NCBI GenBank assembly: GCA_963832655.1
Contig: CAWHUW010000005.1
Span: 257,156 to 321,155 of the forward strand
Length of the DNA: 64,000 nt
Direction: 5' to 3'
Source: an uncultured Thermoleophilia bacterium
GTDB taxonomy: Bacteria > Actinomycetota > Thermoleophilia > UBA2241
Shown one piece after another: positions 16,521 to 63,564 of this stretch (positions are counted from its first letter, which is position 1; every line of letters begins with the position of its first letter). Under the pieces are notes generated by a model, which saw only the letters and a list, made by a program, of their open reading frames with translations, ran no database searches and had not been told where the DNA came from. Made by a program: the position numbers and the translations under genes.

Positions 16521-18707
16521 CTACCCGTACGCCTCGACCCGGTTCTTGCCGCCGCGCTTGGCCTTGTACAGCGCCGCGTCGGCATTGCGGACCAGCTCCT
16601 CGACCGTATCGCTGAGGCCGGGGAACGAGGCCACGCCGACGCTCACCGTGAGGCAGGTGCCCGGACGCCCGGTGATGCCGACGAGGCAGGCGCGCTCGAA
16701 CCGCGCCCGCACACGCTCCGCGACCGCCTCGGCGCCGTCAAAGTTGCCCGGAGCCGGCTCGAGCGGAGCGGTCTCGCCTTCGACGGTCCCGGTCTCGGCA
16801 GGCACCGGCATCGCGAGCTGCGGATCGGCCGCGCCGTCGAGCGGCGTGTTGGGGAGGATGATCGCGAACTCCTCGCCGCCGTAGCGGGCCGCGATGTCGA
16901 TGTCGCGGCGCAGGGCCGCGCCGAGGATGCCGGCGACGGCGCGCAGCACCTCGTCGCCGGCGACGTGACCGCGGCTGTCGTTGAAGGCCTTGAAGTCGTC
17001 GATGTCGACCATCAGCAGTGACACCGGTGAGCCATACCGCTGCGCCCTTGCGACCTCCTGGCCGAGACGCTCGTAGAAGTAGCGGTGGTTGTACAGGCCG
17101 GTGAGGCCGTCGGTGATCGCCCGCTGCTCGCTGACGCGGTACAGACGGGCGTGCTCGATCGCCACCGCGGCCTGCTCCGCCAGCGCCTCCGCCAGTTCGA
17201 GTTCCTCGGGCGTGAACCGTCGCTCGCGCTCCGTCTCGATGAGCACGAGCAGACCGTACGGCTCGTCGTTGAACACCAGCGGCACGTTCAAGTAGGCCTT
17301 GTCGCCGAACTTCTCGAAGGAGATCCGCGCCCCGGGCGTGACGTCGGGGTCGGAGGCGATCTGCTCGACGGGGACCTTGCCGTCGATGATCGCCCGTTCC
17401 TCCGGTTCATCGTCGAGCGTGAACGTCTCGTGCAGCGACTCGAGAGCGGCGGGGTCGGGCTCGCGCATGTACATCGCCGACACCGTGACGGTGTTCGCGC
17501 CGGCGTCGAACTCCTGGATCTGGCACTGCTGGCAGTCCAGGGCCTCCGCCGCCGTGCGGGCGACAGTCTGCAGCACCTCCTCGAGGTCGACGGTGGAGGT
17601 GATCGCCTTCGTCGACTGGAGCAGCGAGTCGAGGCGCCGGTTCTGCTCCTCGAGGCGCTGAAGGACCTGGGCGTTGCGCATCGCGATCGCCGCCTGCTCG
17701 GCCAGCGCTCCGGCGATCTCGCGCTCGTCGCTCGTGAAGTGCCGCTCGGCTTCGGTCTCGACGAAGACGAGCAGGCCGATCGGCCGGCCTTCGTCCTCGA
17801 GCGGGACGCTCATGATCGTCTTCTCCCCGTTCTCGATCATGGAGCGGCGGTTCGCCTCGTCCAGCGTCGGGTCGGAGATCTGCTCCTCCTGTATCCGGCC
17901 GCCGTAGAGAGTGGCACGGTCGCTGGGGAAGTCCCGCAGCGAGTAGGACCGGCCGACCCAGTCCCTGTCGTCCTTGCCGGGGGTGCGCTGGTAGAAGGCG
18001 GCGATACTGATGGTCTCGCTCTCGGCGTCGTACGAGTCGATGGCGCACTCCGTCGTCCCCAGGGCTTCGGCCGCCGCCCGCGCGACCGTCTGCAGAAGCT
18101 CGTCCAGGTCAAGCGTCGAGGAGATGGCGCGACCGGCGTCGACCAGCGCGCGCAGCCGCCGGTTCTGCTGCGCCTCCCGGCGGAACATGCGCGCGTTGTG
18201 GATCGCGACGGCAGCCGGCACGGCGAGCTGTGCAAGCAGCCTGTGCTCCTCCAGGGTGAAGCAGCGCCGCGTACGCTTCTCGACAAGCGTGAGCAGCCCG
18301 ATCGCCTCGTCGTTGAAGATGAGCGGCGCCGACAGGTTGGTGTGCTCGTGCCACTGCTGCATCTCCCGCAGGTGAGCCGGGTCGAGACCCTGGTCGTCGA
18401 GCTGGAACTCATGGACGCCGCCGGTCTCGATGAGCTCGCGAAACGTGGGCCGCTCGGCGATGTCCACCGCCGTCCCTATCCAGGACCGGTCCGCGGCCGT
18501 GATCTCGCGCGCCCACAAGGCCGTCGCGAGGAGCCTTCCCTCGAGCGGCCTGTACTCGTAGACATTGCACTCCCAGACGTCGAAGAGCTCGGTCAGGCGA
18601 CGGGCGATGGTCGACAGCACGTCGTCGAGCTCGAGGCTCGACGACACGGCGGCGCCCACCTCGAGCGCGAGTTCCAGTTGATCGCGCTTGTCGCTGACCT
18701 GGGTCAC
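16521..18707 (-). CDS. Diguanylate cyclase with three N-terminal GAF domains (GAF-GAF-GAF-GGDEF).
   Basis: 728 aa; RYGGEEFAIILPNT (GGEEF motif) and DGLTGLYNHRYF; three repeated GAF-like blocks, each ending in ...AVAIHNARLY / MRNAQ-like helices. Confidence 0.8.
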   Translation of the reverse strand: MTQVSDKRDQLELALEVGAAVSSSLELDDVLSTIARRLTELFDVWECNVYEYRPLEGRLLATALWAREITAADRSWIGTAVDIAERPTFRELIETGGVHEFQLDDQGLDPAHLREMQQWHEHTNLSAPLIFNDEAIGLLTLVEKRTRRCFTLEEHRLLAQLAVPAAVAIHNARMFRREAQQNRRLRALVDAGRAISSTLDLDELLQTVARAAAEALGTTECAIDSYDAESETISIAAFYQRTPGKDDRDWVGRSYSLRDFPSDRATLYGGRIQEEQISDPTLDEANRRSMIENGEKTIMSVPLEDEGRPIGLLVFVETEAERHFTSDEREIAGALAEQAAIAMRNAQVLQRLEEQNRRLDSLLQSTKAITSTVDLEEVLQTVARTAAEALDCQQCQIQEFDAGANTVTVSAMYMREPDPAALESLHETFTLDDEPEERAIIDGKVPVEQIASDPDVTPGARISFEKFGDKAYLNVPLVFNDEPYGLLVLIETERERRFTPEELELAEALAEQAAVAIEHARLYRVSEQRAITDGLTGLYNHRYFYERLGQEVARAQRYGSPVSLLMVDIDDFKAFNDSRGHVAGDEVLRAVAGILGAALRRDIDIAARYGGEEFAIILPNTPLDGAADPQLAMPVPAETGTVEGETAPLEPAPGNFDGAEAVAERVRARFERACLVGITGRPGTCLTVSVGVASFPGLSDTVEELVRNADAALYKAKRGGKNRVEAYG

Positions 18708-20839
18708 GCGTCCTCCGCGTCCGGCGACGCCGAATCCTCGAAGACCTCGGTCCGGTTCTTGCCGGAACGCTTGGCCGCGTAGAGCGCCTTGTCGGCGTTG
18801 CCGACGAGCTCGGCGGCCTCGGGCTTACCCTGGCCGAAGGCGGCGACCCCGACGCTCACCGTGACGTGCGCGTATCGGCGACCGCCGCGTCCGGCGAACG
18901 CCTGCGTGGCGACCGCCTCGCGCAGGCGCTCGCCGACGATCGCGGCGCCGGCGCCGGGCGGCGGCAGTTCCTCGTCGAGACCCTCGAGCTTGCTGCACAC
19001 GCGGCGGCCCACGCACTGCGCGCCCGAGACCGTCGTATGCGGAAGGATCACGGCGAACTCCTCGCCACCGTAGCGCGCCGGGATGTCCACCCCACGGCGG
19101 ATCGAGTCGGCGAGGACACGTCCTACCTCACGGAGTACCTCGTCCCCCATTTGGTGCCCGTGCTCGTCGTTGAAGCGTTTGAAGTCGTCGACGTCGATCA
19201 TCAGCAGCGAGAGAGGAAGTCCATACCGCCACGCCCGCTTGCACTCCTGATCCAGCCGCTCCTGGAAGTGGCGGTGGTTGTAGAGCCCGGTGAGGCCGTC
19301 GCGGACGGCCTGCTCCTGGACCTGCCGGTACAGGCTCGCGTTCGCCAGCGCGACCGCCGCCTGGTTGGCAAGCACCTGCAGCGCCTCGATCTCGCCGACG
19401 AGGAAGGCCCGCCTGCCCGGGACCGCGACACGGATGAAGCCCTCGGCGCGGCCCTTGGCGACCAGCGGCACGACGAGAGACGAGCCGGTCACGTCGACGA
19501 CCTGGGCCGGGCGCAGCGCGTCGAGCGCCTCGCGGGCCACAGCCGGAGGCTCGACCGCGGACGCCGCCGCTTGCGGGCCGGCCCCCAGGTCCTCGCCGGC
19601 CGCGCCGGCGGGGGTGAAACCGCCGCCGCCGACGCGCAGCCAGACGTCGGCCTCGGCCCCGTCGACGAAGAGCTGCCGCGCGCCTTGAACCACTGCCTCC
19701 GCCACGGCCCCGGGGTCGAAGGTCGAGCTCAGAGCGCGACTGGTGTCGAACAGCCCGAGCAGCCGCGCACTCTGGACCTTGCGGGCGCGGTAGAGGCGGG
19801 CGTTGTGCAGTGCCGCGCTGGCGAGCTCTCCCATGCTTCTGATGAGCTCGATCTCCTCCAGTTCGAACGGCCGCTCCTCCACCATGTCGTACAGGCGCAG
19901 GATACCGACCGGCTCGCCGCGGAAGGCGAGCGGCACGCTGAGCACGGTCTTCTCATCCCACGCCGTCATCGATGCCTTGCGGTCGTCGGGCAGTTCCGGG
20001 TCGGACGCGTGCTCCACGACGACGGTGCCGCCGGCGAGGATCGCCCGGTCTCCGGGGTAGGCGTCGAGGGCGTACTTGGTGCCGAGCTCGTCGTCCGGCT
20101 CGACATCCGGCGGGGCGAAGCGCTCGTGGAGTGCGCGATAGACGATGCTGTCGGTCGCGGACTCGTACTCGTAGATGACGCTCTGCGACACGTCGGCGAC
20201 CTCGGCCACGGCGCGGCCCACGCTGCTGAGGACCTCGTCGAGGTCCATCGTCGCGGTGATGGCCAGGGTCGCGGCCAAGACGGCCGCGAGGCGCCGCGTG
20301 TGCTCGGCCCGGTCGCGATAGGCACGCGCGTTGCGCATCGCGATCGCCGCCGGGCCGGCGAGGAGCTCGAGCAGGTGCTTGTCCTCGGCGCTGAAACGGC
20401 GTTCGCGGCGCTCGCGCTCGGCGACGCAGAGCACGCCCAGTACCTCGTCGCCATACACGAGCGGCGCCTCGAGGCTGGCGAGCTCTCCCCACCGCAGCAT
20501 GAGATCGCGCTCCCCCTCGCGGAGGGCCGCGTCATCGACGTACTCCTCGAGCAGGACGCCGTCCTCGAGCACCGCCCGGACGCCGTCACGTTCGTCGATT
20601 GGCACGACGGTGCCCACGTAGGCCTCTTCGTCGGGGTCGGGCAGCGGCGTCCACTCCGCTGCACAGGTCATCGTGTCGTTCGCCGCGTCGTACTCGTGGA
20701 TGTCGCAGTACTGGACGTCGAGCGCCTCACCGACCTGTCGCGCGATGGTGGCAAGCACGCGCTCGAGGTCCAGGGAGCCCGTCAGCGTGGCGCCGACCTC
20801 GAGCACGGTCTCGTAGAGCCCGGCGCGGCCGCTAGTCAC
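18704..20839 (-). CDS. Diguanylate cyclase, second GAF-GAF-GAF-GGDEF paralog.
   Basis: RYGGEEFAVILPHT, DGLTGLYNHRHF. The GTG start is 4 nt after the stop of the upstream paralog, and the stop overlaps the downstream paralog's start. Confidence 0.8.
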   Translation of the reverse strand: MTSGRAGLYETVLEVGATLTGSLDLERVLATIARQVGEALDVQYCDIHEYDAANDTMTCAAEWTPLPDPDEEAYVGTVVPIDERDGVRAVLEDGVLLEEYVDDAALREGERDLMLRWGELASLEAPLVYGDEVLGVLCVAERERRERRFSAEDKHLLELLAGPAAIAMRNARAYRDRAEHTRRLAAVLAATLAITATMDLDEVLSSVGRAVAEVADVSQSVIYEYESATDSIVYRALHERFAPPDVEPDDELGTKYALDAYPGDRAILAGGTVVVEHASDPELPDDRKASMTAWDEKTVLSVPLAFRGEPVGILRLYDMVEERPFELEEIELIRSMGELASAALHNARLYRARKVQSARLLGLFDTSRALSSTFDPGAVAEAVVQGARQLFVDGAEADVWLRVGGGGFTPAGAAGEDLGAGPQAAASAVEPPAVAREALDALRPAQVVDVTGSSLVVPLVAKGRAEGFIRVAVPGRRAFLVGEIEALQVLANQAAVALANASLYRQVQEQAVRDGLTGLYNHRHFQERLDQECKRAWRYGLPLSLLMIDVDDFKRFNDEHGHQMGDEVLREVGRVLADSIRRGVDIPARYGGEEFAVILPHTTVSGAQCVGRRVCSKLEGLDEELPPPGAGAAIVGERLREAVATQAFAGRGGRRYAHVTVSVGVAAFGQGKPEAAELVGNADKALYAAKRSGKNRTEVFEDSASPDAEDA

Positions 20840-22958
20840 CGAACACCTCGACGCGGTTCTTGCCCATGCGCTTGGCCAGATAGAGGGCCTTGTCCGCCTC
20901 CCTGACGAGCTCGTCCGGGTCCGCGGCGCCGGGGTGGGCGGCCACACCGACGCTCACCGTCACACCGACGGCGCCGACCGCCGGCCACCGACGCGGCCTC
21001 GACGACCCGGCGGATGCGTTCGCCGACGATGCGCGCGCCCTCGCCCCGCTCTGACGGCAGCGCCGGGTCCCGGGAGGCGGCCACGCCTCGACGGCGAGCA
21101 GGCCGTCGAGCGCGGCGATCTCCCGGACGATGCGGTCGCCGACGACCTCGGCACCCTCGCGCGCCGTGTTGGGCAGGATCACGGCGAACTCCTCGCCCCC
21201 GTACCGCGCGGCCACGTCCACATCGCGTCGCAACTGCGTCGCGAGCAGCCGGCCCACCTGCGCCAACACCAGGTCGCCGGCCGGGTGGCCGTACTGATCG
21301 TTGAAGGCTTTGAAGTCGTCGATGTCGAGCATGAGCAGCGAGAGGGGCAGACCATAGCGCTGGGCGCGGGCGGACTCCTGCGCGAGCCGCTCGTAGAAGT
21401 AGCGGTGGTTGTACAGACCGGTGAGGCCGTCGGTGATCGCCTGCTCCTGCACGGTCCGGTAGAGGCGCGCGTTGGCGAGCGCCGCGGTCGCCTGGCTCGC
21501 GAGGATCTGGACCATCTCGACGTCCTCGGCGTCGAAGGGGCCCCGGCCGGCGACCGCGACCTCGACACAGCCTTCGACCTCGTCGCCGGCCGTGAGCGGA
21601 GCGACCAGGCGGACGCCGTCGGCTCCGGATTCCTGCGCCGGGCGGCGGTCGGCGACCGCGGTCCGACGCAGTTCGTCCTGCTCTTCACCGTCGCCGTCGG
21701 CCCTCGCTCCGAGCGACACCGTGACGCCCTCGTCCGGCGCCGCGAAGAGCTCCGAGATGGCAGCGCACGTGTCGTGGAGGACGGCCTCGACGTCGAGTGA
21801 CGCCGCCAGCGAGCGGCTCGTCTCGAGCAAGGCCAGGAGCCGGCGGTTCTGCTCCTCCTGCTCGCGGTGGAAGCGTGCGTGGACGATGGCCACGGCGGCC
21901 TGTTCGCCGAGGGCCCTCGCCAGCTCTGTCTCGTCCGGCGAGAAATGCCGTTCGCGATCGGCCTCGATGAGGATCAACTCGCCGACCGGCGTCCCCTCGA
22001 AGAGCATCGGCACGTTGAGGCACGTTCTCTCGCCCCAATCTGTCATGGCCTCGCGGACGAAGGGATCAAGCGAGGGATCCGAGACGCGGTCCTCGACGAT
22101 CGCTCCTGAATGCAGCATCTCGCGATCACCAGGCCGCTCGTCGACATCGTACTCGGCGCCGATCTGTGCTTGCGCGTCCTCGCTCGGCTCGGCCTGGTAG
22201 ATGGCGCGGAACACGAAGACCTCGCGCTCCGCGACGTACTCGTAGATCACGGCCTCGGCGGTCTCGAGCGCCGAGGCCGCCTCGCGGCAGACGACGTTGA
22301 GGATGTCCTCGAGGACGACGGCCGACGTCAGGGTCCGGCTGGAGTCAAGCAGCGACGCCAGATGACGCGCCTGGTCCTCCTCACGACGATAGAGGCGGGC
22401 GTTGTTGACCGCGACGGCCGCAGGGATCGAGAGCAGCCGGACGAGTTCCTTGTCGTCCGCCGTGAAGTGCCGGACCTCGCGCTTCTCGATGAGCGTGAAG
22501 CACCCGATCACGCGATCCTCGAAGACCAGCGGCACCGACATCGTCGCCAGCTCGCCCCACTCCTCCATGAGCTGGCGGTCGAGCGCGTCGGTGCCCTCGG
22601 TGTCGTCGTAGCTCTCGTCGGTGGCGCCTTCGAGCAGGACCCGATGGTAGCTCGGACGATCGGCCAGCGACCATGCGGTGCCGATCCAGTCGTGGTCCTC
22701 CTGCGTCATCTCGCGCGCCCAGGCCGTCGTGGCCACGATGGTCTCGCTGTCGGGGTAGTACTCGTAGATGTCGCACTCCCAGACGTCGAGCGCCTCGGCG
22801 ATGCGGCGAGCCACGCTCCCCAGGACCTCTTCCAGCGCGAGACTGGAGGTGAGGGCGGCCCCCACCTCGCAGGCGATCTCGTGATGACTCTTGACGGCCG
22901 CGTGTCCACGCACGGGCGACGCTCCTGTTCGTACTCCTGCGAGTATCGGCACGCGCAC
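20832..22958 (-). CDS. Diguanylate cyclase, third GAF-GAF-GAF-GGDEF paralog. An imperfect internal duplication causes a local frame disturbance near the C-terminus.
   Basis: RYGGEEFAVILPNT, DGLTGLYNHRYF, 708 aa. Confidence 0.75.
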   Translation of the reverse strand: MRVPILAGVRTGASPVRGHAAVKSHHEIACEVGAALTSSLALEEVLGSVARRIAEALDVWECDIYEYYPDSETIVATTAWAREMTQEDHDWIGTAWSLADRPSYHRVLLEGATDESYDDTEGTDALDRQLMEEWGELATMSVPLVFEDRVIGCFTLIEKREVRHFTADDKELVRLLSIPAAVAVNNARLYRREEDQARHLASLLDSSRTLTSAVVLEDILNVVCREAASALETAEAVIYEYVAEREVFVFRAIYQAEPSEDAQAQIGAEYDVDERPGDREMLHSGAIVEDRVSDPSLDPFVREAMTDWGERTCLNVPMLFEGTPVGELILIEADRERHFSPDETELARALGEQAAVAIVHARFHREQEEQNRRLLALLETSRSLAASLDVEAVLHDTCAAISELFAAPDEGVTVSLGARADGDGEEQDELRRTAVADRRPAQESGADGVRLVAPLTAGDEVEGCVEVAVAGRGPFDAEDVEMVQILASQATAALANARLYRTVQEQAITDGLTGLYNHRYFYERLAQESARAQRYGLPLSLLMLDIDDFKAFNDQYGHPAGDLVLAQVGRLLATQLRRDVDVAARYGGEEFAVILPNTAREGAEVVGDRIVREIAALDGLLAVEAWPPPGTRRCRQSGARARASSANASAGSSRPRRWPAVGAVGVTVSVGVAAHPGAADPDELVREADKALYLAKRMGKNRVEVFGD

Positions 22959-23075
22959 GCGTATCCATAAGAGGCGACACTAGGAGAACCGTCTAGGCGC
23001 AGGCTGCGCCGGCAGGGACGGCGGCGAGCTCGCGGGCCTCGCGCCGCGCCGGGAGGCGCCGCGCGCCCGAAGCGG

Positions 23076-29307: not shown

Positions 29308-29759
29308 TCAGCCCCAGACCTCCCGCGCCGCGGCGAGCACCTCGGCCGCGTGGCCCTTGGGGGTCACCTTCGGGTAGATCCTGCGCAGCGTCCCGTCGGC
29401 GTCGATCAGCCAGGTCGTGCGCTTGGCGACCCCGACCATGGGCCGCGCCACGCCGAACGCGCCGGCGACGGCGTGCTCGTCGGGTTCGCTGATGAGCGGC
29501 ATGCGCAGCTCGTACTTCTGCGCCCACTTCTGATTGGCGGCGGGCTTGTCGACGCTGGCGCCGACCACCTGTACGCCGAGCTTCTCGAACTCACCCAGCA
29601 GGCCGTTGAACTCAACGGCTTCCGTCGTTCAGCCCCCGGTGTTGGCCTTGGGGTAGAAGAACAGGACGGTCCGCCTGCCGGGGGCGCCGATGTCGAACAC
29701 GGTCCCGTCATACGACGTGCCGGTCACCGCCGGCGCCTTGTCACCCTCCTTGAGCATCG
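29308..29759 (-). CDS. PrxQ/Bcp-type peroxiredoxin with an in-frame TGA (29629-29631) at the peroxidatic-Cys position. It is a candidate selenocysteine-containing peroxiredoxin.
   Basis: The two ORFs 29629..29985 and 29308..29568 are in the SAME frame, separated only by TGA. Translation reads VLFFYPKANTGG-[UGA]-TTEAVEFNGLLGEFEKLGVQVVGASVD, i.e. the PrxQ P-x-x-x-T-x-x-C-T-x-E motif with UGA replacing Cys. Confidence 0.6.
29602..29619 (-). promoter_or_regulatory. SECIS-like hairpin 10 nt downstream of the in-frame UGA of the peroxiredoxin.
   Basis: mRNA 5'-GCCGUUG AGUU CAACGGC-3' forms a perfect 7-bp GC-rich stem with a 4-nt apical loop containing G-U. The spacing from UGA to the apical loop is ~17 nt, within the bacterial SECIS range. 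Confidence 0.4.
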
Positions 29760-29819: not shown

Positions 29820-30272
29820 TCAGTAGCCGCCCCAGAGCTGCTCCGCCTCGGCCAGCACGTCCCTCGCGTGGCCGTACGGCGGCACCTCGCTGAAGATCCG
29901 TTTGACGAGCCCCGTCCGGTCGATCATGAAGGTCGCCGCCCGCGGCCGTCCCTTCTTGGTGCCGACCAGGCCGAAGGCGAAACAAGCCTTGCGATCGGCG
30001 TCGCTCACGAGCGGGTAGTGCAGGTCGTAGCCCGAGGCGAAGGTCGCGACCAGCGCCGCACGGTCCACGCCGATGCCGATCACCTGCACGCCGAGCTGCT
30101 TGAAGCCGAAGAGCTGGTCGTTGAAGTCGGAGGCCATGCTGATGCTGCGCGCGCTCATGGCCTCCTCGAAGAAGAAGAGGACGAGGTGCTGCCCCGGGGC
30201 GGCGAGGTCGTAGTACTGGCCGTCGCTCGTCGCCAGCGTCACCGCCGGGGCCTCTTCGTCGATGCCGATCAC
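29820..30272 (-). CDS. Peroxiredoxin-fold paralog lacking any active-site cysteine.
   Basis: A clear paralog of the adjacent PrxQ (EAPAVTLATSDGQYYDLAAPGQHLVLFFF vs KAPAVTGTSYDGTVFDIGAPGRRTVLFFY, and matching C-termini ...RIFSEVPPYGHARDVLAEAEQLWG). The catalytic segment reads EEAMSARSISMASDF with no Cys in any frame. Confidence 0.6.
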   Translation of the reverse strand: MIGIDEEAPAVTLATSDGQYYDLAAPGQHLVLFFFEEAMSARSISMASDFNDQLFGFKQLGVQVIGIGVDRAALVATFASGYDLHYPLVSDADRKACFAFGLVGTKKGRPRAATFMIDRTGLVKRIFSEVPPYGHARDVLAEAEQLWGGY

Positions 30273-30300
30273 GGTGACCTCCTCCGTCCCTCCGGGGCGC

Positions 30301-30648
30301 TCAGCCCGCTTCGATCTCGGCGTCGTCCGCGATCGGCGGCGCCGCCACGACCACGAAGGTCAAGGGCCCGACACCCACGTTCGAGACGCGGTGCCAGGCG
30401 CCCGACGGGACGACGAGCGCGTCGCGCTCCCCGAGCTTGTGGTGGGCCTCATCGATGTCGACCATGGCCGTCCCGTCGAGGACCACGTAGAGCTCTTCCT
30501 GCTCGCGGTGGAGATGCCGCAGCATCGATCCTTCGGCCAGCGTGAACACGTTGGCCCGCATCTGCGTCAGGCCCAGCTTGTCGCCGATCCGCTGGACACT
30601 CAGCTTCTCGGACAGGTTCTCGGTCGGCACGGCGTGAACGACGTCCAT
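30301..30648 (-). CDS. Cupin domain protein.
   Basis: HLHREQEELYVVLDGTAMVDID ... GAWHRVSNVG cupin motifs. Confidence 0.6.
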   Translation of the reverse strand: MDVVHAVPTENLSEKLSVQRIGDKLGLTQMRANVFTLAEGSMLRHLHREQEELYVVLDGTAMVDIDEAHHKLGERDALVVPSGAWHRVSNVGVGPLTFVVVAAPPIADDAEIEAG

Positions 30649-30685: not shown

Positions 30686-31324
30686 TCAGCCCTTCTCTGG
30701 TTCGAGGATCGACACCGGGATCCCGCAGAGCTGCTTCAGGCGCCACGCGTCGTCTTCTGACCCGACGATGTCGCCGAAGTGCATGGGCACCACGACGGCG
30801 GCCTTCAACATGGTGCAGGCCTGGGCCGCCTCCTCGGCCGTCATGGTGTAGGTACCGCCCACCGGGAGCAGCGCCACGTCGACGTCGATGTCCCGCATCT
30901 CGGGGATCGCGTCGGTGTCGCCGGCATGGTAGATGCGCACCCCGTCCATCTCGACGATGTAGCCGACGTGGCACTCGCCCCGAGGGTGGTAGACGACGCC
31001 TGGCTTCTTGTACTTGTTCACGTTGTAGGCGGGCACCACGGTCACCTTTGCGGTGCCCGCGTCCACGATCTGCCCCGGCTGCGCGGTGAAGCCGGCGCGC
31101 CGGCCGATCTTGCCGGTGACGCAGGGCGGGCCGACGATCACCGTGCCGGGTCCGGTGACCTTGTCGATGTCCGCCAGGCTGAGATGGTCGTAGTGATCGT
31201 GGGTGACGAGGATCGCGTCCGCGGGGGGCTGACCGGCAGGAAGCTTCCACGGGTCGACGTACAGCGTGCTGCTGCCGTCGATTCGGAACGAGTCGTGGCC
31301 GAGCCAGTGGACGTGCTCAAGCAT
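30686..31324 (-). CDS. MBL-fold metallo-hydrolase (UPF0173-like).
   Basis: ILVTHDHYDHL and HAGDTD motifs. Confidence 0.7.
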   Translation of the reverse strand: MLEHVHWLGHDSFRIDGSSTLYVDPWKLPAGQPPADAILVTHDHYDHLSLADIDKVTGPGTVIVGPPCVTGKIGRRAGFTAQPGQIVDAGTAKVTVVPAYNVNKYKKPGVVYHPRGECHVGYIVEMDGVRIYHAGDTDAIPEMRDIDVDVALLPVGGTYTMTAEEAAQACTMLKAAVVVPMHFGDIVGSEDDAWRLKQLCGIPVSILEPEKG

Positions 31325-31384
31325 CGTGCCCCTCCTTCGAAGACGCGCCACGAGCATCGTACCCGAAGAAGCGGAGAATACAGC

Positions 31385-31428
31385 GGGGCGGCCGCCGGAC
31401 CGGCCGAGCCCGGTCCGGCGGCCGCCCC
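31385..31428 (-). terminator. GC-rich hairpin downstream of the cold-shock gene.
   Basis: Inverted repeat ggggcggccgccggaccgg-ccgagc-ccggtccggcggccgcccc. Confidence 0.45.
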
Positions 31429-31454
31429 GCCGCCCACTGCGTCTGCGCCCGAAG

Positions 31455-31901
31455 TCACTCGGCGCTTGCGCGCTCCTCGTCGGCCTCGGGCTCCGCGACG
31501 GCCTCTTCGACCTCGACGGCCTCCTCGACCTCTTCGGCCACGATCTCCTCGGCGACCTCTTCGGCCACGATCTCCTCGGCGACCTCTTCGGCCACGATCT
31601 CCTCGGCGACCTCTTCGGCCACGATCTCCTCGGCGACCTCTTCGGCCACGATCTCCTCGGCGACCTCTTCGGCCGGGGCCTCCGCAGCCGGAGCGGCTGC
31701 GGCCGCCACCGGCCGCACGTTGGCGGCCTGGTCGCCCTTGCGGCCCTGGGTGACCTCGAACTCGACCACCTGGTCGGTCTCGAGCGACGTCACGCCCTCG
31801 GCGAGGCCGGTGACGTGCACGAAGATGTCGCTGTCGTTGTCCTGCGCGATGAACCCGTAGGCCTTCTCGGTCGAGAACCATTTGACTTTGCCTTGAGGCA
31901 C
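31455..31901 (-). CDS. Cold-shock-domain protein (CspA family) with an acidic C-terminal tandem-repeat tail.
   Basis: VPQGKVKWFSTEKAYGFIAQDNDSDIFVHVTGL (cold-shock domain), then (EEVAEEIVA)x5 and an EEAVEVEEAVAEPEADEE tail. Confidence 0.8.
   Translation of the reverse strand: MPQGKVKWFSTEKAYGFIAQDNDSDIFVHVTGLAEGVTSLETDQVVEFEVTQGRKGDQAANVRPVAAAAAPAAEAPAEEVAEEIVAEEVAEEIVAEEVAEEIVAEEVAEEIVAEEVAEEIVAEEVEEAVEVEEAVAEPEADEERASAE
31527..31674. repeat. Five and a half tandem copies of a perfect 27-bp repeat (gacctcttcggccacgatctcctcggc) inside the csp gene.
   Basis: Seen directly. It encodes the 9-aa acidic repeat and causes the shadow ORF 30779..31753 with PRRPLRPRS repeats. Confidence 0.9.
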
Positions 31902-48772: not shown

Positions 48773-49741
48773 ATGGCACGCGAACCTCTCACTCGCGCTG
48801 ACTTCCTCAAGATCCTGGCCGCCGGCGCCGGCGGCGTCGTGTTCTTCCGCGGGGCCGAGGACGCGCTCGCCGGCATCGCCGGCGCACACGACGACATCGA
48901 CCAGGCTGCTCTCAGCGGCGACCTCGCGGCGGCCCTCGCTTACCCCCACATGACCGTCGTCAAGGGTACCCCGATCGGCACGAACGTGAGGACGGCCATC
49001 GCGAAGCTCGGCGGCATGCGCCGCTTCGTCGCCGCCGGCGCCGACGTGATCATCAAGCCCAACATCTGCACCGCGCGCACGCCGGGGTACGCGGCGACCA
49101 CCAACCCCACCGTCGTCGCGACGCTCGTGCGCCTGGCGCTCGGCGCGGGAGCGAGCCGGGTCCGGGTCATGGACAACCCGATCTCGGTGGCCCCGCTCGG
49201 CGCCTACACCACCAGCGGGATCAAGAGCGCCGTGGAGAAGGCCGGGGGGGCCATGCAGATCATGAGCGGCACCCGCTATCGGGACTACTACGTCGGCGGC
49301 CTCCTCGGCTACCACCCGCTCTACAGCGACATGCTCGCCTGCGACGTCCTCATCAACGTGCCGGTCGCCAAAGTGCACGGGGCCACCGGCCTCACGCTCG
49401 CCGGCAAGAACATGATGGGCGCCACGAACGACCGCGGGGCGATGCACACCAAGGGACTCAGCAGGAGCATCGCCGAGATCAACCGCAAGCTGAAGCCGGA
49501 CCTCACGGTCATCGACGCCATCCGGATCCTCGTCGCGCACGGCCCGACCGGCGGCAACCTGTCCGACGTGCGCCGCAAGGACACCGTCATCGCCTCCAAG
49601 GACTGGGTGGCGGCCGACGCGTACGCGACGCGGCTGTTCGGCAGGACGCCCCGCTACGTCCCCTACATCGCGGCCGCGCACCGCATGGGCCTCGGGGAGA
49701 ACGACCTGTCGAAACTGACCATCCGGAAGTACTGGGTCTGA
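48773..49741 (+). CDS. DUF362 family protein with a Tat-like N-terminus.
   Basis: LTRADFLKILAAGAGG followed by VIIKPNICTAR...AATTNPTVVATLVRLALGAG, typical of DUF362. Confidence 0.55.
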   Translation: MAREPLTRADFLKILAAGAGGVVFFRGAEDALAGIAGAHDDIDQAALSGDLAAALAYPHMTVVKGTPIGTNVRTAIAKLGGMRRFVAAGADVIIKPNICTARTPGYAATTNPTVVATLVRLALGAGASRVRVMDNPISVAPLGAYTTSGIKSAVEKAGGAMQIMSGTRYRDYYVGGLLGYHPLYSDMLACDVLINVPVAKVHGATGLTLAGKNMMGATNDRGAMHTKGLSRSIAEINRKLKPDLTVIDAIRILVAHGPTGGNLSDVRRKDTVIASKDWVAADAYATRLFGRTPRYVPYIAAAHRMGLGENDLSKLTIRKYWV

Positions 49742-49748
49742 GCGAGCC

Positions 49749-51383
49749 GTGAGGGACGAGGCCGAGGCGGTGCGCCGGTCGACGGGCGGCTGGAAGGCCG
49801 CCCGCTGGGCCCGGCGCGCCACCCAGATCGCCGCGTTCGCCGTCTTCGTGTACCTGCTGTTCGCGGGGCTGCAGCGCCTCGAGCCGCTGCCCTACGCGAA
49901 CATCTTCTTCCGCTTCGACCCGCTGGCGGCGTTCGCGACCATGCTGGCCGCCCGCGTCTGGATGCCGGACTTCGCTCTCGCGCTCGTCACGCTGGCGCTG
50001 GCCGTCGTCGTGGGCCGCGTCTGGTGTGGCTGGATCTGCCCGCTGGGCAGCCTGCTCGGGTGGCTCCGGTTCCGCTCCGCGCCGCGGCGGGCCGGGCGTG
50101 TGCCCCCGGCCCTGCGGCGCGTCAAGTACGTGCTCCTCGGCGCCGTCGTCGTGCTCGCCGCCCTCACCGGCCTCACCCTTCTCGTACTCGACCCTGTCGC
50201 CCTGCTCACGCGCACCGCGACGACGTCGCTCATCCCCGGCGCCGTCTTCATCGTCGACAGTCTCGAGGAGGCAGGGATGCGCTGGGAGCCGACGGTCGGC
50301 GCCGTGACGTGGGTCGAGGACCACTTCCGCGGCAACGTCCTCCCGACGATCCAGCCGCGGTACGGGCAGGCGGTCCTGCTCTTCCTGGTCCTGCTCGCGG
50401 TGATCCTTCTCAACGCCTTCGCGCACCGCTTCTGGTGCCGGTACCTGTGCCCGCTCGGAGCGCTGCTCGGCCTGGTCGCCAAGGTGCAGGTGCTGCGCCC
50501 CGTCGTCGGCGACGCCTGCGACCGCTGCGGCGCCTGCGCTCGCGCCTGCGGCGTCGACGCCATCGAACTGGCGTCGGACGGCGGCGCCGTGGCGCCGGCT
50601 GCCGACTCGCCGAACGGCGGCACCGCCCGCGTCGTCACCTCGGAGTGCACGATGTGTCTCGACTGCCTCGTCGCCTGTCCCCGACCCGGCGCCATGAGCT
50701 TCGGCGTGGCGCGGCGGCCCGGGCCGTGGGCGCCGTACGATCCGGGGCGCCGCGAGGTCGTCATCGCGGCGGCGGCCGGCGTGGGAGCCGCGGTGCTCTT
50801 CGGCACCGGCGTCGCGCGCGCCGTGCCGCGCCCGGGCCTGATCCGCCCGCCGGGCGCCCAGGACGAGGCGCGCTTCCTCTCCCGCTGTCTGCGCTGCAGC
50901 GAGTGCATGAAGGTCTGCCCCACGTCCGGCCTGCAGCCGACGCTCGCCGAGGCCGGCCTCGAGGGGCTCTGGACCCCCGTCCTCAAGTCGCGCCTCGGCT
51001 ACTGCGACTACGCCTGCACCGCCTGCGGACACGTCTGCCCGTCCGGCGCCATCCCGAAGCTGGGCCTCGAGGAGAAGCGCGTGCAGGTCCTCGGCGTCGC
51101 CGTCATCGACCGCGACCGCTGCCTGCCGTGGGCGTCGGACACACCCTGCATCGTCTGCCAGGAGATGTGCCCCGTCCCCGACAAGGCCATCGAGCTCGTC
51201 GGGCAGCACCTGGTCACCCGCCCCGACGGCTCGCAGGACTACCTCTCGCGGCCGAAGGTCATCGCCGACCGCTGCATAGGCTGCGGTATCTGCGAGTACA
51301 AGTGCCCGCTCGAGGGGACTTCGGCGATCGTGGTCCTGCCGTCGAACCCCGACCTCGCCGGCGGCACGGTGCCTCTCGGCTGA
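49749..51383 (+). CDS. NapH/MauN/CcoG-like membrane polyferredoxin (4 TM helices and four [4Fe-4S]-type Cys motifs).
   Basis: Two CGWICPLG / CRYLCPLG motifs plus CDRCGACARAC, CTMCLDCLVACP, CLRCSECMKVCP, CTACGHVCP and CIGCGICEYKCP. Confidence 0.7.
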   Translation: MRDEAEAVRRSTGGWKAARWARRATQIAAFAVFVYLLFAGLQRLEPLPYANIFFRFDPLAAFATMLAARVWMPDFALALVTLALAVVVGRVWCGWICPLGSLLGWLRFRSAPRRAGRVPPALRRVKYVLLGAVVVLAALTGLTLLVLDPVALLTRTATTSLIPGAVFIVDSLEEAGMRWEPTVGAVTWVEDHFRGNVLPTIQPRYGQAVLLFLVLLAVILLNAFAHRFWCRYLCPLGALLGLVAKVQVLRPVVGDACDRCGACARACGVDAIELASDGGAVAPAADSPNGGTARVVTSECTMCLDCLVACPRPGAMSFGVARRPGPWAPYDPGRREVVIAAAAGVGAAVLFGTGVARAVPRPGLIRPPGAQDEARFLSRCLRCSECMKVCPTSGLQPTLAEAGLEGLWTPVLKSRLGYCDYACTACGHVCPSGAIPKLGLEEKRVQVLGVAVIDRDRCLPWASDTPCIVCQEMCPVPDKAIELVGQHLVTRPDGSQDYLSRPKVIADRCIGCGICEYKCPLEGTSAIVVLPSNPDLAGGTVPLG

Positions 51384-51444
51384 GACGGCGGGAGGAGGCG
51401 GCGAGCGCGGCGCACCGCCTGAGCGGCGGCCGAAGGCGCTGCGA

Positions 51445-52338
51445 TCAGCGGTACCCGGCCGCCCGGAACAGCTCCGGCAGCGAGACGGGCTGTAAATTGC
51501 GCGCCCGGAGCCCCCGCAGGATCGCGGGGAGCGCCGACGCGGTCCGTCGCTTGATGTGGAGCAGAACGATGGATCCGGGTCGCACGTTGCGGAGCACACG
51601 CCGCGTGATGACTGCGGCGCGCGGCGAACGCCAGTCCTCGGGATCGACGTCCCAGAGAACGAGGCGTGTGAAGCCGACCGCGCCGGCGACGCGGCGCATC
51701 CGTCGGTCGTACCTGCCGTAGGGCGGTCGAAGGTAGGGCGCCGGCGTCGCGCGCGCGGCCGTCCACCACGGCCGGCTGCTTCGCGCCAGCTCACGGCGCA
51801 TCTGTGCGGTCGTCAAGCCCGTCATCACCGCGTGCGACCAGCCGTGGGAACCCACGGCGTGCCCCTCCGCGAGCGTACGACGCGCCAGCTCCGGGTTGGC
51901 GCTCACGTAGGGCCCGAGGACGAAGAACGTCGCGCGGACCCCCCATGCCTTGAGCGTCCGCAGGATCCGCCTCCACGGGCCGGCGGCGCCGTCGTCGAAC
52001 GTCAGCGCGACGCGCCTTCCTGCGCCGTCGATGCGACGCCATGCCTGGGCGATCGTGGCGCCGGATCCGTCGCCCGCAGCCGCCCGAGCCACCTCGGCGT
52101 TGGCGCGGCGCGACCCAGGCCCGGCGCTTGCGGCGACGGCCGACGATGACGTTGGGCCGTCGGACGGCGCTGGTGGCGACGGTGTGAAGGGCGAGACGAC
52201 AGCCGCGGATGGGCTCGCGACAGCCTCCCGACGTGCGTCCGCGCCGACGGGCGCGCCGGCCATGCTCGTCGTCAACAGGAAACCGCCAAGGGCGAGCGCG
52301 GCCAGGACGACGGCGATGAGGATGGCGTTTCGCTGCAC
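51445..52338 (-). CDS. Polysaccharide deacetylase (NodB homology domain), secreted.
   Basis: Signal peptide; VALTFDDG (TFDDG motif); HGWSHAVM. Confidence 0.7.
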   Translation of the reverse strand: MQRNAILIAVVLAALALGGFLLTTSMAGAPVGADARREAVASPSAAVVSPFTPSPPAPSDGPTSSSAVAASAGPGSRRANAEVARAAAGDGSGATIAQAWRRIDGAGRRVALTFDDGAAGPWRRILRTLKAWGVRATFFVLGPYVSANPELARRTLAEGHAVGSHGWSHAVMTGLTTAQMRRELARSSRPWWTAARATPAPYLRPPYGRYDRRMRRVAGAVGFTRLVLWDVDPEDWRSPRAAVITRRVLRNVRPGSIVLLHIKRRTASALPAILRGLRARNLQPVSLPELFRAAGYR

Positions 52339-52655
52339 GGGTGCCTCCCGGACGCCGGGTCGTCTGCCCGGCAGGCGCGATCGACGCGCGACGTCGGGAC
52401 TGTGTTCGCACGCGACGTCTCACGACCTTCCCGTGGGCCGACGTCCGGGGGCAGCGCGCGACCTCCGCGTCCTCGCGGTTGACCCAGGTCAATGCACCGA
52501 CGGCCCGGTGCCGGTACAGTAACCACCACGGCGGCAGTGTTTACTGCGCCGTGACCCACCAAACCGACACACCCGGCCGCCGGCGCTCGCGCGACGATCC
52601 CCCGTCGTGACAACGGCTTCGGCGGCGGCAGATCCGGAAAGAGGTCACATAGCCA

Positions 52656-53036
52656 TGGCAGTCCGCAACATCGTGAAGATCGACGAGGAGCTCTGCAACG
52701 GGTGCGGTCTCTGCGTCACCCCGTGCGCCGAAGGCGCGATCGAGATGGTCGACGGCAAGGCCAAGGTCGTCAAGGACGAGCTCTGCGACGGCGCCGGCTT
52801 CTGCCTCGCAGTGTGCCCGACCGGCGCCCTCACCGTCGAGGAGCGCGAGGCGCCGGCGTTCGACGAGGAAGCCGCCGCCGAGCGCGTCGCCGAGAAGCTC
52901 GCCGCCGCCGTCGCCATCCAGCAGAACTGCTTCAACTGCGGCCGCAGCGAGATGGACGCCGTCCTCTTCCCCTGCCGCAACAAGGGCGCAAGCACCTGGG
53001 TGTGCGTCAAGTGCCTGCCCGCCCTCATCCACGGTT
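52656..53036 (+). CDS. Ferredoxin-like protein with one canonical and one atypical Cys motif plus a Cys-rich C-terminal tail.
   Basis: [11 protein letters not shown] (CxxCxxCxxxC), [12 protein letters not shown] (C-x5-C-x3-CP), then NCFNCG...FPC...WVCVKC. Confidence 0.65.
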
Positions 53037-53086
53037 GACCGGCGCCCTCGGCGCCTGAACGTTCCCAACTCTCCCAGGAGGAGTCC

Positions 53087-54952
53087 ATGGCCGACAGTTA
53101 CCACGCATCAGTCCACACGATGCTCGAAGAAGCCCGGGAGCAGGGCGAGGACACGGCGTTCGACCGCATGGACGCCATGGGCCGCCGCTGCACCTTCTGC
53201 GAGCAGGGCATCCGCTGCTCGCTGTGTTCGCAGGGTCCCTGCCGCATCACCGAGAAGGCGCCGCGTGGCGTCTGCGGGATCGACGCCGACGGCATGGCGA
53301 TGCGCAACTTCCTGCTGCAGAACACGATGGGCACCGCCACCTACACCTACCACGCGACCGAGGTGATGAAGACCCTCCGCGAGGCGAAGCCCGGCGGCAC
53401 CTACGAGATCAAGGACTGGAGCAAGCTCGAGACGCTCGCCTCCGTGGTCGGCGAGCCCGCCGAGCCCAGGGACACGTTGCCCAAGCGGGTCGCCGACGCG
53501 ATCCTCGCCGAGTTCAACCGCGACCACCAGAGCCCCTCGCCCTTCGTCGAGAAGATGGCGCCGGCTCCGCGCGTGGCCAAGTGGAAGGAGCTCGGCATCA
53601 TGCCGGGCGGCATCTTCCACGAGAGCATGTTCGCGACCTCGAGCTGTCTCACCAACGTCGACGGCAACTACGTGAGTCTCGCCCTCAAGGCCCTCCGCCT
53701 CGGGATCGCCACCGCCTACGGCGCGCAGATCCCGCTCGAGCTCGCCCAGGACGCGCTCTGGGGCACGCCGACGCCGCACCCCATCAAGGTCGACCTCGGC
53801 ATCATCGACCCCGCCTACGTCAACATCGTCGTCAACGGCCACGAGCCCATGGTCGGCGCCGCCCTGATCGCCGCGGCCCACGAGCCGGCGGCTCAGGAGA
53901 AGGCGAAGGCCGCCGGCGCCAAGGGCCTGCGCATCGTCGGCTCGATCGAGACCGGCCAGGAGCTCGTCCAGCGCTTCGAGGTCGACGACGTCTTCGTCGG
54001 ACTCACCGGCAACTGGCTCACCGAGGAGCTCGCCGTCGCGACCGGCGGCCTCGACGTGTTCGCCGCCGACATGAACTGTACCGTGCCGACCCTCGGCGCC
54101 ACCTGCGCCGCCCACGGCACGCTCCTCGTGCCCGTCAGCGACCTCGTCGGCATCGACGGCGCCGAGACGCCGATCGTCTTCGACCCGGCCAAGGCCGGCG
54201 ATCAGGCGAAGCAGCTCATCGAGCTGGCCGTAGCCAACTTCCCCAAGAGGAAGGCCCTCGGCCAGACCACCCCCGCGCTGCGCACGGGCGACGCCGTCGC
54301 CGGTTTCAGCACCGAGAGCATCCTCGGCGCCCTCGGCGGCAGCCTCGACCCGCTGCTCGACGTCATCAAGAACGGCACCCTCAAGGGCGTCTGCGGCCTC
54401 GTCAGCTGTACCACGCTGCGCGACTCGGACCAGGACAGCCACACGGTCGCGATCGCCAAGGAGCTCATCAAGAACGACGTCCTCGTACTGGCCATGGGTT
54501 GCGGCAACGCCGCCCTGCAGGTCGCCGGTCTCGAGGCCGCCGAGGCCAAGGAGATGGCCGGCCCCGGCCTCAAGGCGGTCTGCGAACTGCTCGGCATCCC
54601 GCCGGTCCTGAGCTTCGGCACCTGCACCGATACGGGCCGCATCTTGCTGCTCGTCGGCGCCATCGCCGACGCCCTCGGCGTCGACGTCCCGGCGTTGCCC
54701 GTCGTGGCTACGGCACCCGAGTACATGGAGCAGAAGGCGACCATCGACGCCATGGCGGCGCTGGCCTTCGGCCTGTACGTGCATGTGAACCCGGTGCCGT
54801 TCGTCACCGGCGCGCCGAACCTCGTCAAGCTGGTGACCCAGGACCTCCCGGGCGTCACCGGCGGCAAGCTCGACGTCGAGACCGACGCCAAGAAGGCCGT
54901 GGCGAACATGATGGCGTGGATAGCGGACAAGCGCCAGGCACTCGGGATTTGA
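53087..54952 (+). CDS. CooS-family (anaerobic Ni-CO dehydrogenase catalytic subunit) homolog. It has a CxxC-type D-cluster motif, and the CooS Cys-Cys pair containing Cys295 aligns to Ile-Glu.
   Basis: 621 aa, collinear from my memory of the CODH-II sequence: CTFCEQGIRCSLCSQGPCRI, GVCGIDADG (B-cluster Cys), NIVVNGHEP (His261 equivalent), DMNCTVPT (Cys333), GVCGLVSCTT (Cys446), AMGCGNAAL (Cys476), FGTCTDTG (Cys526), EQKA (Lys563). GICCTGNE in CODH-II aligns to GSIETGQE. Confidence 0.75.
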   Translation: MADSYHASVHTMLEEAREQGEDTAFDRMDAMGRRCTFCEQGIRCSLCSQGPCRITEKAPRGVCGIDADGMAMRNFLLQNTMGTATYTYHATEVMKTLREAKPGGTYEIKDWSKLETLASVVGEPAEPRDTLPKRVADAILAEFNRDHQSPSPFVEKMAPAPRVAKWKELGIMPGGIFHESMFATSSCLTNVDGNYVSLALKALRLGIATAYGAQIPLELAQDALWGTPTPHPIKVDLGIIDPAYVNIVVNGHEPMVGAALIAAAHEPAAQEKAKAAGAKGLRIVGSIETGQELVQRFEVDDVFVGLTGNWLTEELAVATGGLDVFAADMNCTVPTLGATCAAHGTLLVPVSDLVGIDGAETPIVFDPAKAGDQAKQLIELAVANFPKRKALGQTTPALRTGDAVAGFSTESILGALGGSLDPLLDVIKNGTLKGVCGLVSCTTLRDSDQDSHTVAIAKELIKNDVLVLAMGCGNAALQVAGLEAAEAKEMAGPGLKAVCELLGIPPVLSFGTCTDTGRILLLVGAIADALGVDVPALPVVATAPEYMEQKATIDAMAALAFGLYVHVNPVPFVTGAPNLVKLVTQDLPGVTGGKLDVETDAKKAVANMMAWIADKRQALGI

Positions 54953-61748: not shown

Positions 61749-63564
61749 ATGAAGCGGTCCGTCCTGCTCGCGAGCCTGGTTCTCGCGAATCTGTCTGCTC
61801 TGGGCGCCCGGGGTCGCCCTCGCGCTCACGCAGCAGCAGTGCCTCACCTGCCACACCGAGATCACGCCGGGCATCGTGACCCAATACCAGTCGGGCGCCA
61901 TGGGCGACGACGTCGCCTGCCTCGACTGCCACGGCGACGACCACAGCGTCATCACCGCCACCGAGGGCAAGGTCCCGGCCGGGAAGTGCGCCGGTTGCCA
62001 CCCCGACCAGTACGCGGAGTTCACCGTCAAGGACGCGACCGGGTCGTACATCAACAAGCACGCGCAGGGCTGGACGCGAATGCTCGCCGGCGCCCGCTAC
62101 AAGGTCATGCCCGAGGCCGAGCGCTACGAGATGTGCGAGCGCTGCCACAACATCGGCTACACCTACGTGGACGGCTCGGTCGGCAAGTGCGACTCGTGCC
62201 ACACGCGGCACGTCTTCTCTGCCGAAGAGGCGAGAGAGCCGGCCGCCTGTGGCACCTGCCACATGGGCCCCGACCACGAGCAGATCGACATGTGGGAGAA
62301 GAGCAAGCACGGCGTCGTCTACATGACCGAGAAGGAGCGCCCCGGCGGCGATCCCGGACGAGCGCCGACCTGCGTCACCTGCCACCAGCCTGAGATGGTG
62401 AACGGTGCCGGCCAGCCGCTGACGCACAACGTGTCGACCAACCTGACGTACGGCACCGTCGCCCAGGGCGCCCGCCTCGTCGGGACGCCACTGTCGGTGC
62501 CGATGCGCACGATGACCGAGTCCGAGTTCTCCTCCCGGCGGGCGAACATGCTCGGAGTCTGTGGCGACTGCCACTCCTCGACGTGGGCGCGCAAGAACCT
62601 CGAGCTCGCCGACCAGATCAAGATGGACGTCGACGAGCTGCTCTGGGACCCGGTCATGCGCATCCGCGGCCTCTGGTACGACGGCCTGCTCGACCCGATG
62701 CCCGAGAACCGGCCGCCGAACCCGGTGTACGCCGCCGCCGGACCCAACTTCGTCAACGGCGGCTACGTGCTCGTCCTCGGCGGCCAGCAGCTCTACAGCG
62801 ACACGTCGGCGATCGAGCAGTGGCTCTTCTACACCTACAAGTACGACCACGTGAACACGTTCAAGGGCGCCTACCACATCAACCCCGACTACAGCCACTG
62901 GTTCGGCTGGTCGGAGGTCAACCAGGACATCGGGATGATCAGGGGCGAGGAGGCCTCGCTGCGCCGCGGTGAGGACCCGGGTTTCGCGGCCAGCCCGACG
63001 CGGCCCGTGGTCGGACAGCCGACGACGTTCGACGCGAGTGCCCTCGCGGCGTGGGGCGACGCGAGCGCCAACGTGTATGCGTGGACCTTCGGCGACAAGG
63101 CGTCTGCTGCTGCCGCGGCCGAGACGAGCGTCGCCCATACCTACGCCGCCCCCGGCCGCTACACGGTGCAGCTCACCTGCTCCGACGGCGACCTCGTCAA
63201 CAACGTGCTTCAGCCGCTGAGCTGCTCCGGGAAGCGCACGAGCAGCCTGCGAACACAAGCCAAGTACGGCGCCACGTTCGGGCTCTACGAGATCGCTCGC
63301 GTGAAGAAGGGCAAGCAGGTCACCATCAAGGGGTCGCTCAAGACCGACGACTCCAACGCCGCCCTCGTCCAGCTCTGGGAGAAGGTCGGCTCGGGATCGT
63401 GGAAGATGGTCAGCTCCAAGACGGTCGCCACGACGGCCGGCGTGTCCCTGACCGTGTCCTTCAAGCGCACGCTGAACTCCAAGACGTCCTTCAAGCTGAC
63501 CTACGTCGGCGACGCCGACACGTGGGACGTGACCACCAAGACGCGGACCATCTCACCGCTCTGA
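61749..63564 (+). CDS. Octaheme c-type cytochrome (HAO / octaheme nitrite reductase-like heme arrangement) with a C-terminal PKD-like domain and beta-rich tail. There is a frameshift near ~61800.
   Basis: Signal peptide MKRSVLLASLVLANLSAL. Eight CxxCH motifs: CLTCH, CLDCH, CAGCH, CERCH, CDSCH, CGTCH, CVTCH, CGDCH. PKD-like VYAWTFGDKASAAAAAETSVAHTYAAPGRYTVQLTCSDGD. Confidence 0.7.

Follow-up and report, generated by a model that had tools for sequence, protein, structure and literature searches.

A conserved PrxQ paralogue without peroxidatic Cys or Sec is encoded beside a predicted Sec-containing PrxQ in uncultured Thermoleophilia

Introduction

Peroxiredoxins (Prx) are defined by a peroxidatic Cys or Sec. 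Well-known members of the PrxQ/BCP type are E. coli BCP, Xanthomonas campestris PrxQ, and Bcp1 and Bcp4 from Sulfolobus solfataricus. Sec-containing Prx with a TxxU motif constitute a known selenoprotein family (PMC13188914, PMC1794560), and an engineered Prx deprived of both its peroxidatic and resolving Cys was shown to have no detectable activity (PMC6617597). We found no natural Cys-less Prx paralogue and no Prx pseudoenzyme in the literature, the sole match to 'lacks the peroxidatic cysteine' being an engineered mutant.

Here, we analysed a 64-kb stretch of DNA from an uncultured Thermoleophilia bacterium, referred to as the window, in which a gene encoding a PrxQ paralogue without Cys or Sec at the peroxidatic position lies next to a putative Sec-PrxQ gene. 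The paralogue has shed the defining residue together with three of its four supporting residues, and is nevertheless, as far as can be judged from its orthologues, still under selection.

Results

The paralogue gene and its active-site segment

The gene of the Cys-less paralogue is found on the minus strand at positions 29820..30272 and, according to the ORF list, encodes 150 aa followed by a stop codon, with a GTG start and an in-frame GC3 of 0.93. A ribosome-binding site read from the sequence, GGAGGAGG (30278..30285, minus strand), is located 5 nt before the GTG, and the orthologues have ATG at the same start codon. The former active-site segment was delimited by profile alignments to solved PrxQ structures. 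It corresponds to codons 33-50 (30123..30176, minus strand) and reads FFFEEAMSARSISMASDF, as described in the first-pass annotation, with the AGC codon of Ser43 (30144-30146, minus strand) at the peroxidatic Cys/Sec position. That annotation had concluded that the catalytic Cys was lost entirely and that neither Cys nor UGA was present in any of the three frames of the segment. The peroxidatic residue is indeed gone, but the protein retains one Cys, Cys97, whose TGT codon (29982..29984, minus strand) lies outside the segment; similarly, the segment contains no in-frame Cys or UGA, but an out-of-frame TGA (ccATGAgc) is present in an alternative frame. This TGA was rejected as a meaningful signal, since it is gone in orthologues having ACC or ACG before AGC there. 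In line with the proposal that the gene is a duplicate of the UGA-containing PrxQ, whose N- and C-terminal blocks had been noted to match, the two proteins of the window align end to end and not just in those blocks, with 40% identity and one 1-residue gap (E = 2e-38).

Genomic context

On the minus strand, the gene order is MBL-fold hydrolase (PRK00685-like, 30686..31357), cupin (30301..30648), paralogue, and Sec-PrxQ (149 codons, 29308..29757), the last one starting 62 nt downstream of the paralogue. The gaps measure 28-62 nt, and no terminator-like site was detected between the paralogue and Sec-PrxQ genes in the window. A strong terminator-like hairpin of 20 pairs (31383..31430, minus strand), placed after a cold-shock-domain gene, marks the upstream boundary, with the MBL-fold hydrolase as the first gene. 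The four genes form an apparent single transcription unit. The cold-shock-domain protein itself (31455-31901, minus strand) ends in an acidic C-terminal tail made of tandem repeats (AEEVAEEIV, about 5 or more copies), and its orthologues range from 71 to 157 aa with a widely variable tail length.

The window and its relatives also agree in their wider synteny: MetY, MetX, MetW, the cold-shock-domain protein, the MBL-fold hydrolase, the cupin and the Prx genes are followed by an HD-domain protein on the opposite strand and then by MFS, DUF1385 and 4HBT genes. Wherever enough downstream sequence is available (19 out of 19 loci), the next gene after that of the paralogue is a PrxQ gene whose codon 43 is TGA. 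We found the pair in L001-L010, L012-L025 and L035/36; the spacers, 14-72 nt long, each contain a ribosome-binding site. The pair is kept in the distant loci L005, L025 and L035/36 even though their paralogues are only 43-46% identical to that of the window. As this lineage conserves the gene order of the region as a whole, the strict adjacency of the two genes is a weaker sign of functional coupling than it would seem. One subclade differs by a small ferredoxin gene (Fer4_13/15), lacking in the window, that lies on the opposite strand and separates the cupin gene from the Prx gene or genes (L005 1885-2127, L029 3466-3678, L031 2485-2697 and L035 2635-2847).

Elsewhere in the window, three consecutive paralogous genes encode GAF-GAF-GGDEF diguanylate cyclases of about 715-770 aa each (16521-22979, minus strand). 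On the plus strand (49719-54952 and 61753-63564), we observed genes for a polyferredoxin, a prismane/CO-dehydrogenase family protein and a multihaem cytochrome with a PKD domain. Such anaerobe-type redox genes fit an anaerobic or microaerophilic Thermoleophilia host that uses Sec.

The paralogue belongs to the PrxQ/BCP group

As the first-pass annotation had suggested a check against the AhpC/TSA profile, we note that the paralogue scores 71 bits with Pfam AhpC-TSA (PF00578), above the gathering score of 26, over profile positions 1-123 of 124; Sec-PrxQ scores 102.6 bits. With the NCBIfam equivalogs for thiol peroxidase/PrxQ, the paralogue remains far below the cut-off (54.7 bits vs 140 for PRK09437, and 48.3 vs 260 for PerredPrxQDein), and neither Pfam nor NCBIfam searches revealed any similarity to a non-Prx family. 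When the profile of the paralogue family was compared with the PDB, the best matches were the BCP/PrxQ structures 5enu, 3gkm, 3hjp, 5iiz and 3drn (E about 1e-16). An AF2 model built with 32 homologues reached a mean pLDDT of 90.7 and a pTM of 0.87, and its top PDB matches by Foldseek were again of the BCP/PrxQ type (9a4d_B, 3drn, 5enu, 3gkm and 5iiz, with TM scores of 0.85-0.89). By descent and fold, the Cys-less protein is a true PrxQ-derived paralogue.

Catalytic positions are replaced by family-specific residues

We compared 33 members of the paralogue family with 154 other PrxQ-like domains, all aligned to the family HMM, the latter taken as the top representatives when 1.84 billion proteins were searched exhaustively with the profile. 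In the window paralogue, four of the five core catalytic positions are replaced (Pro by Glu36, Cys/Sec by Ser43, Glu by Met46, and Arg by Ala112), and the change at the remaining one, Thr to Ser40, is conservative. The peroxidatic site thus reads E36-E-A-M-S40-A-R-S43 and does not correspond to PxxxT/SxxC with a Cys or Sec. These replacements hold across the family. Position 36 is Pro in 128 of the 154 other domains and Glu in 29 of the 33 family members; position 40 is Thr in 122 of the former and Ser in 27 of the latter. At the peroxidatic position 43, Cys is found in 135 of the other domains, and the family has Ser (28 members), Ala (3) or Gly (2). Position 46 is Glu or Gln in 144 of the 154 and Met or Thr in the family, and the catalytic Arg at position 112, in the R-x-T-F-h-I-D strand (123 of the 154), is Ala or Pro in every one of the 33.

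The family also has conserved residues of its own: Asp/Glu37 (33/33), Arg42 (30/33), Arg94 (33/33), Tyr133 (32/33), and the motif Arg109-Pro110-Arg111 (29940..29948, minus strand), which directly precedes Ala112 and whose first two residues are invariant, with Arg111, one residue before the catalytic Arg position, in 31 of 33 members. The codons at position 43 are AGY in the main clade, TCG in a distant clade and GCG in the L001 group, and a Ser, Ala or Gly codon was found there in 16 independently assembled loci. From these codon classes, an ancestral UGA could not be told from an ancestral UGC. As position 43 drifts among small residues with differing codon classes, it is not a nucleophile under selection. 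The paralogue would be unable to reduce peroxides via Prx chemistry.

Cys97 is present in 32 of the 33 family members and is replaced by Ser in L021/P0024. In other PrxQ-like proteins, the same column contains mostly small residues (A64/C28/S25/T14), so that a redox role of Cys97 is unlikely. It matches Cys99 of E. coli BCP, which is not known to be needed for catalysis.

Loss of the peroxidatic Cys is not restricted to this family. Among the top representative matches, 16 other PrxQ-like domains lack it, and metagenomic proteins such as P0036, P0041, P0042, P0044, P0045, P0084, P0088 and P0089 have Ser, Ala, Asn or Gly at this position. Such domains belong to separate lineages, and Cys loss with retention of the fold is recurrent among PrxQ-like proteins. 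P0036, P0042 and P0089 are multi-domain proteins with two or three PrxQ-like domains, none of which has a peroxidatic Cys; P0042 has a eukaryote-like look with acidic low-complexity stretches, and P0045 is encoded on a contig of 1.3 kb.

The paralogue is conserved under relaxed constraint

A homologue search of 5.8 billion proteins returned 33 clusters homologous to the paralogue. In the main group, the full-length proteins show 62-91% identity, with a length of 150 aa in nearly all cases; one distant member is 46% identical. All of them come from uncultured Thermoleophilia or metagenomes, the source habitats being represented by freshwater and sediment samples from JGI and by Microflora Danica soils, and the genome matches are all Thermoleophilia-labelled MAGs. 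In the exhaustive search of representatives with the family profile, the full-length members scored 288 and 181 bits and two truncated or frameshifted ones 158 and 116 bits, with all non-members at or below 105 bits, indicating a narrow family. The Cys-less form, whose conservation in related genomes had been left to be checked, is therefore kept in about 33 clusters.

For 66 ortholog pairs, the median dN/dS estimated by the Nei-Gojobori method (NG86), a crude measure where genome GC3 exceeds 0.9, was 0.30 for the paralogue vs 0.22 for Sec-PrxQ, and within the main clade both genes gave similar values of about 0.13-0.45. Non-synonymous divergence of the paralogue is 2-3.5 times that of Sec-PrxQ, and identity between subclades is 43-46% for the paralogue vs about 80% for Sec-PrxQ. 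These values indicate that the paralogue is under purifying selection, with a constraint that is relaxed and yet clearly there.

The neighbouring PrxQ is a predicted selenoprotein

The Sec-PrxQ gene has an in-frame UGA at codon 43 (29629..29631, minus strand), the peroxidatic position of PrxQ, within the motif FFYPKANTGG*TTE, and the protein contains no Cys. A SECIS-like hairpin, GCCGUUG-AGUU-CAACGGC (29602..29619, minus strand), begins 9 nt past the UGA. TGA occupies codon 43 in 20 distinct orthologous sequences, in which the hairpin is near-identical and adjacent synonymous sites vary; its two one-sided changes (L012 and L024) keep the pairing as G-U. Judged by the UGA and the hairpin, the neighbouring PrxQ is a real selenoprotein gene. 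Searches of the 64-kb window gave neither a tRNA-Sec nor an Rfam match, and selA, selB and selD were absent from it as well. Most Sec-PrxQ orthologues have no Cys at all, and a search with Sec-PrxQ yielded more than 100 clusters of post-UGA fragments and only two full-length Cys forms.

Two independent conversions of Sec to Cys were observed in relatives. In L026 (3001-3459), the codon is TGC and the SECIS hairpin is destroyed (GCGAAGG...CAACGCC). In L033 (2514-2963), the hairpin is intact despite the TGC codon, and the conversion is therefore probably recent. Another relative, L018 (1748-2194), has Leu in place of the Pro of PxxxTxxU (WFYLKAATGG*) and retains the UGA and the hairpin. Some Sec- or Cys-PrxQ orthologues (L025 2994-3440, P0183, P0260 and P0283) have a lone extra Cys near the C-terminus (..DCRE[LI]W..), which could be a lineage-specific resolving residue. 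Finally, in a comparison of the window with L012, a near relative, identity per 100 nt was 96-100% for the flanks and the Cys-less gene and 81-90% for the Sec-PrxQ gene, except for the block of the UGA and the hairpin (94%). Synonymous divergence was 0.35 for Sec-PrxQ vs 0.04 for the neighbouring gene, which looks like an allelic replacement or a recombination restricted to the selenoprotein gene.

Compared with TxxU selenoproteins, the paralogue has AGC at codon 43 in the window and AGC, AGT, TCG or GCG in the orthologues, and the stretch equivalent to the hairpin, ATGGCCTCCGACTTCAACGAC, is not self-complementary, so no SECIS hairpin was detected in it. Judging from these features, the paralogue is not a selenoprotein.

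Distribution and origin of the pair

Sister lineages were found to contain PrxQ without the paralogue. Sec-PrxQ occupies the same syntenic slot in L029, L030, L031 and L032, where the paralogue is absent, and two Cys-PrxQ lineages (L026-28 and L033-34, the latter from gene calls alone) also lack it within that synteny. A tblastn search gave no trace of the paralogue in L026, L028 and L029-L032. Because these lineages keep a Sec or Cys PrxQ without it, the enzyme does not need the paralogue, which appears to be an accessory dispensable in sister lineages. The first-pass annotation had called the pair unusual, a statement to be tempered, as Cys loss recurs in the 16 other domains and Sec-PrxQ also occurs alone.

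Neighbour joining recovered the paralogue family and the Thermoleophilia PrxQ clade with 100% bootstrap support each, and their sister relation with only 18%. By HMM score and identity, the closest canonical relative of the family is the adjacent Sec-PrxQ, and the two genes most likely share one ancestral gene. The partner genes branch in roughly the same pattern as the members of the paralogue family. In the Sec-PrxQ tree, loci that have the paralogue are intermingled with loci that lack it, L005 being placed, for instance, beside L029 and L025 beside L030. The simplest history looks like an old tandem duplication of a Thermoleophilia PrxQ, followed by co-inheritance and repeated loss. We found no Sec-PrxQ residue by which genomes having the paralogue could be told from genomes lacking it, which argues against an obligate heteromer.

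Discussion

The paralogue has lost catalytic residues yet is preserved by selection, and a helper or binding protein is therefore likelier than a decaying gene. On balance, we favour, by a little, a selectively maintained and non-catalytic pseudo-peroxiredoxin that would be accessory in the Sec-PrxQ unit. Two hallmarks of a pseudoenzyme were found, the loss of residues that the ancestral chemistry requires (four of the five core positions) and purifying selection with conservation across lineages (median dN/dS of 0.30, 33 clusters). The suggestion of a pseudo-enzyme made in the first-pass annotation fits the conserved orthologues, their nearly equal lengths and a dN/dS of about 0.3. As the peroxidatic Cys/Sec and the catalytic Arg are missing, the label 'peroxiredoxin Q/BCP', used by JGI, should not be given to the paralogue, which does not have the features that define the enzyme.

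The remodelled and charged pocket of the former active site, made of Glu36, Asp/Glu37, Arg42, Arg109-Pro110-Arg111 and Tyr133, would be the functional surface of this non-catalytic accessory protein within a peroxide-stress unit. The paralogue might bind Sec-PrxQ, in a heteromer that goes back to a self-associating ancestor, or it might bind a small ligand or a substrate, and within the accessory reading we consider these two modes roughly equally probable. Paralogues of self-associating proteins often associate; PrxQ enzymes are often monomers, which counts against the heteromer. In either mode, the paralogue would tune the selenoenzyme and not enable it.

A decaying pseudogene, that is, a tandem duplicate drifting after the loss of its Sec or Cys codon, had been the other suggestion of the first-pass annotation. 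It would agree with the paralogue evolving faster than Sec-PrxQ and with its loss in several lineages. However, we abandoned it as very unlikely, since the frame is intact, about 33 independent clusters are nearly all 150 aa long, dN/dS is about 0.13-0.45 in the main clade, the replacement residues are themselves conserved, the in-frame GC3 is 0.93, and both the start codon and the ribosome-binding site are conserved. An artefact has a probability close to nil. Frameshift errors do occur in the relative P0031 and in L007, and an assembly or frame error could in principle hide a Cys or Sec codon in the window as well, but a Ser, Ala or Gly codon is repeated in the 16 independently assembled loci. 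Neither does the protein come from a thioredoxin-fold family devoid of a peroxidatic Cys from the start, the objection foreseen by the first-pass annotation, as Pfam, NCBIfam, PDB-profile and fold searches all led to PrxQ/BCP.

The paralogue may have been neofunctionalised independently of Sec-PrxQ, its pocket (Glu/Asp, Ser, three Arg and Tyr) binding or converting a new, probably anionic, ligand, perhaps together with the upstream cupin and MBL-fold hydrolase. This is possible, although we regard it as doubtful. The family-specific conserved residues do cluster in the former active-site loops, the gene is found only where the cupin is also present, and there are other Cys-less PrxQ-like domains that occur singly or joined to one another (P0036, P0042 and P0089); against this, no similarity outside Prx was found, the paralogue was never seen away from Sec-PrxQ, and the distant subclade retains neither Arg42 nor Glu36. 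Redox activity via Cys97, which would serve as a peroxidatic Cys at a new place or, in trans to Sec-PrxQ, as the resolving thiol, is improbable. What speaks for it is that Cys97 is the only Cys of the paralogue and almost invariant, that the window Sec-PrxQ has none, and that the two genes, wherever both occur, are always adjacent. But the column has a small-residue pattern in other PrxQ-like proteins, one family member has Ser, Sec-PrxQ manages without the paralogue in L029-L032, and the equivalent Cys99 of E. coli BCP is not known to be required for catalysis. A split Prx, in which the paralogue would heterodimerise with the Cys-free Sec-PrxQ and Cys97 would act as the resolving thiol through an intermolecular selenenylsulfide, is a long shot; if true, it would be a selenium-based counterpart of typical 2-Cys Prx chemistry, divided between two genes.

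If the non-catalytic accessory paralogue that we favour does modulate or partner Sec-PrxQ, it would represent a new mode of Prx regulation; if it does not, it would be a modest evolutionary curiosity confined to uncultured Thermoleophilia. The family offers a clean natural system for studying the function of the Prx fold without redox chemistry. It also bears on the evolution of selenoprotein-gene duplicates, where the UGA and the SECIS both need maintenance.

Comparison with known systems

The paralogue has the same domain, fold and length as the PrxQ/BCP enzymes from E. coli, X. campestris and S. solfataricus, and it shares their framework motifs PLVSD, FG, TF-ID and GHA-VL. In contrast, their PxxxTxxC motif has become ExxxSxxS, and the Glu at +3 from the peroxidatic Cys, the catalytic Arg and the resolving Cys are all missing. 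With its TGG-U-TTE motif and its hairpin, the window neighbour belongs with the Sec-containing bacterial Prx of the TxxU family, such as PrxU from Eubacterium acidaminophilum, whereas the paralogue has AGC (Ser) for UGA at codon 43 and no hairpin downstream. The metagenomic Cys-less PrxQ-like proteins listed above form separate lineages with their own replacement motifs, and score at most 105 bits with the family profile vs 181-288 bits for full-length members of the paralogue family. A further parallel is the AdoMetDC 'prozyme' of trypanosomatids, a dead-enzyme paralogue that regulates its active partner. Like it, the Thermoleophilia protein is a duplicate without the catalytic residues, kept under selection and co-occurring with an active paralogue; unlike in the prozyme case, the active Sec-PrxQ exists without the dead copy in sister lineages, and the regulatory role of the paralogue is a putative one.
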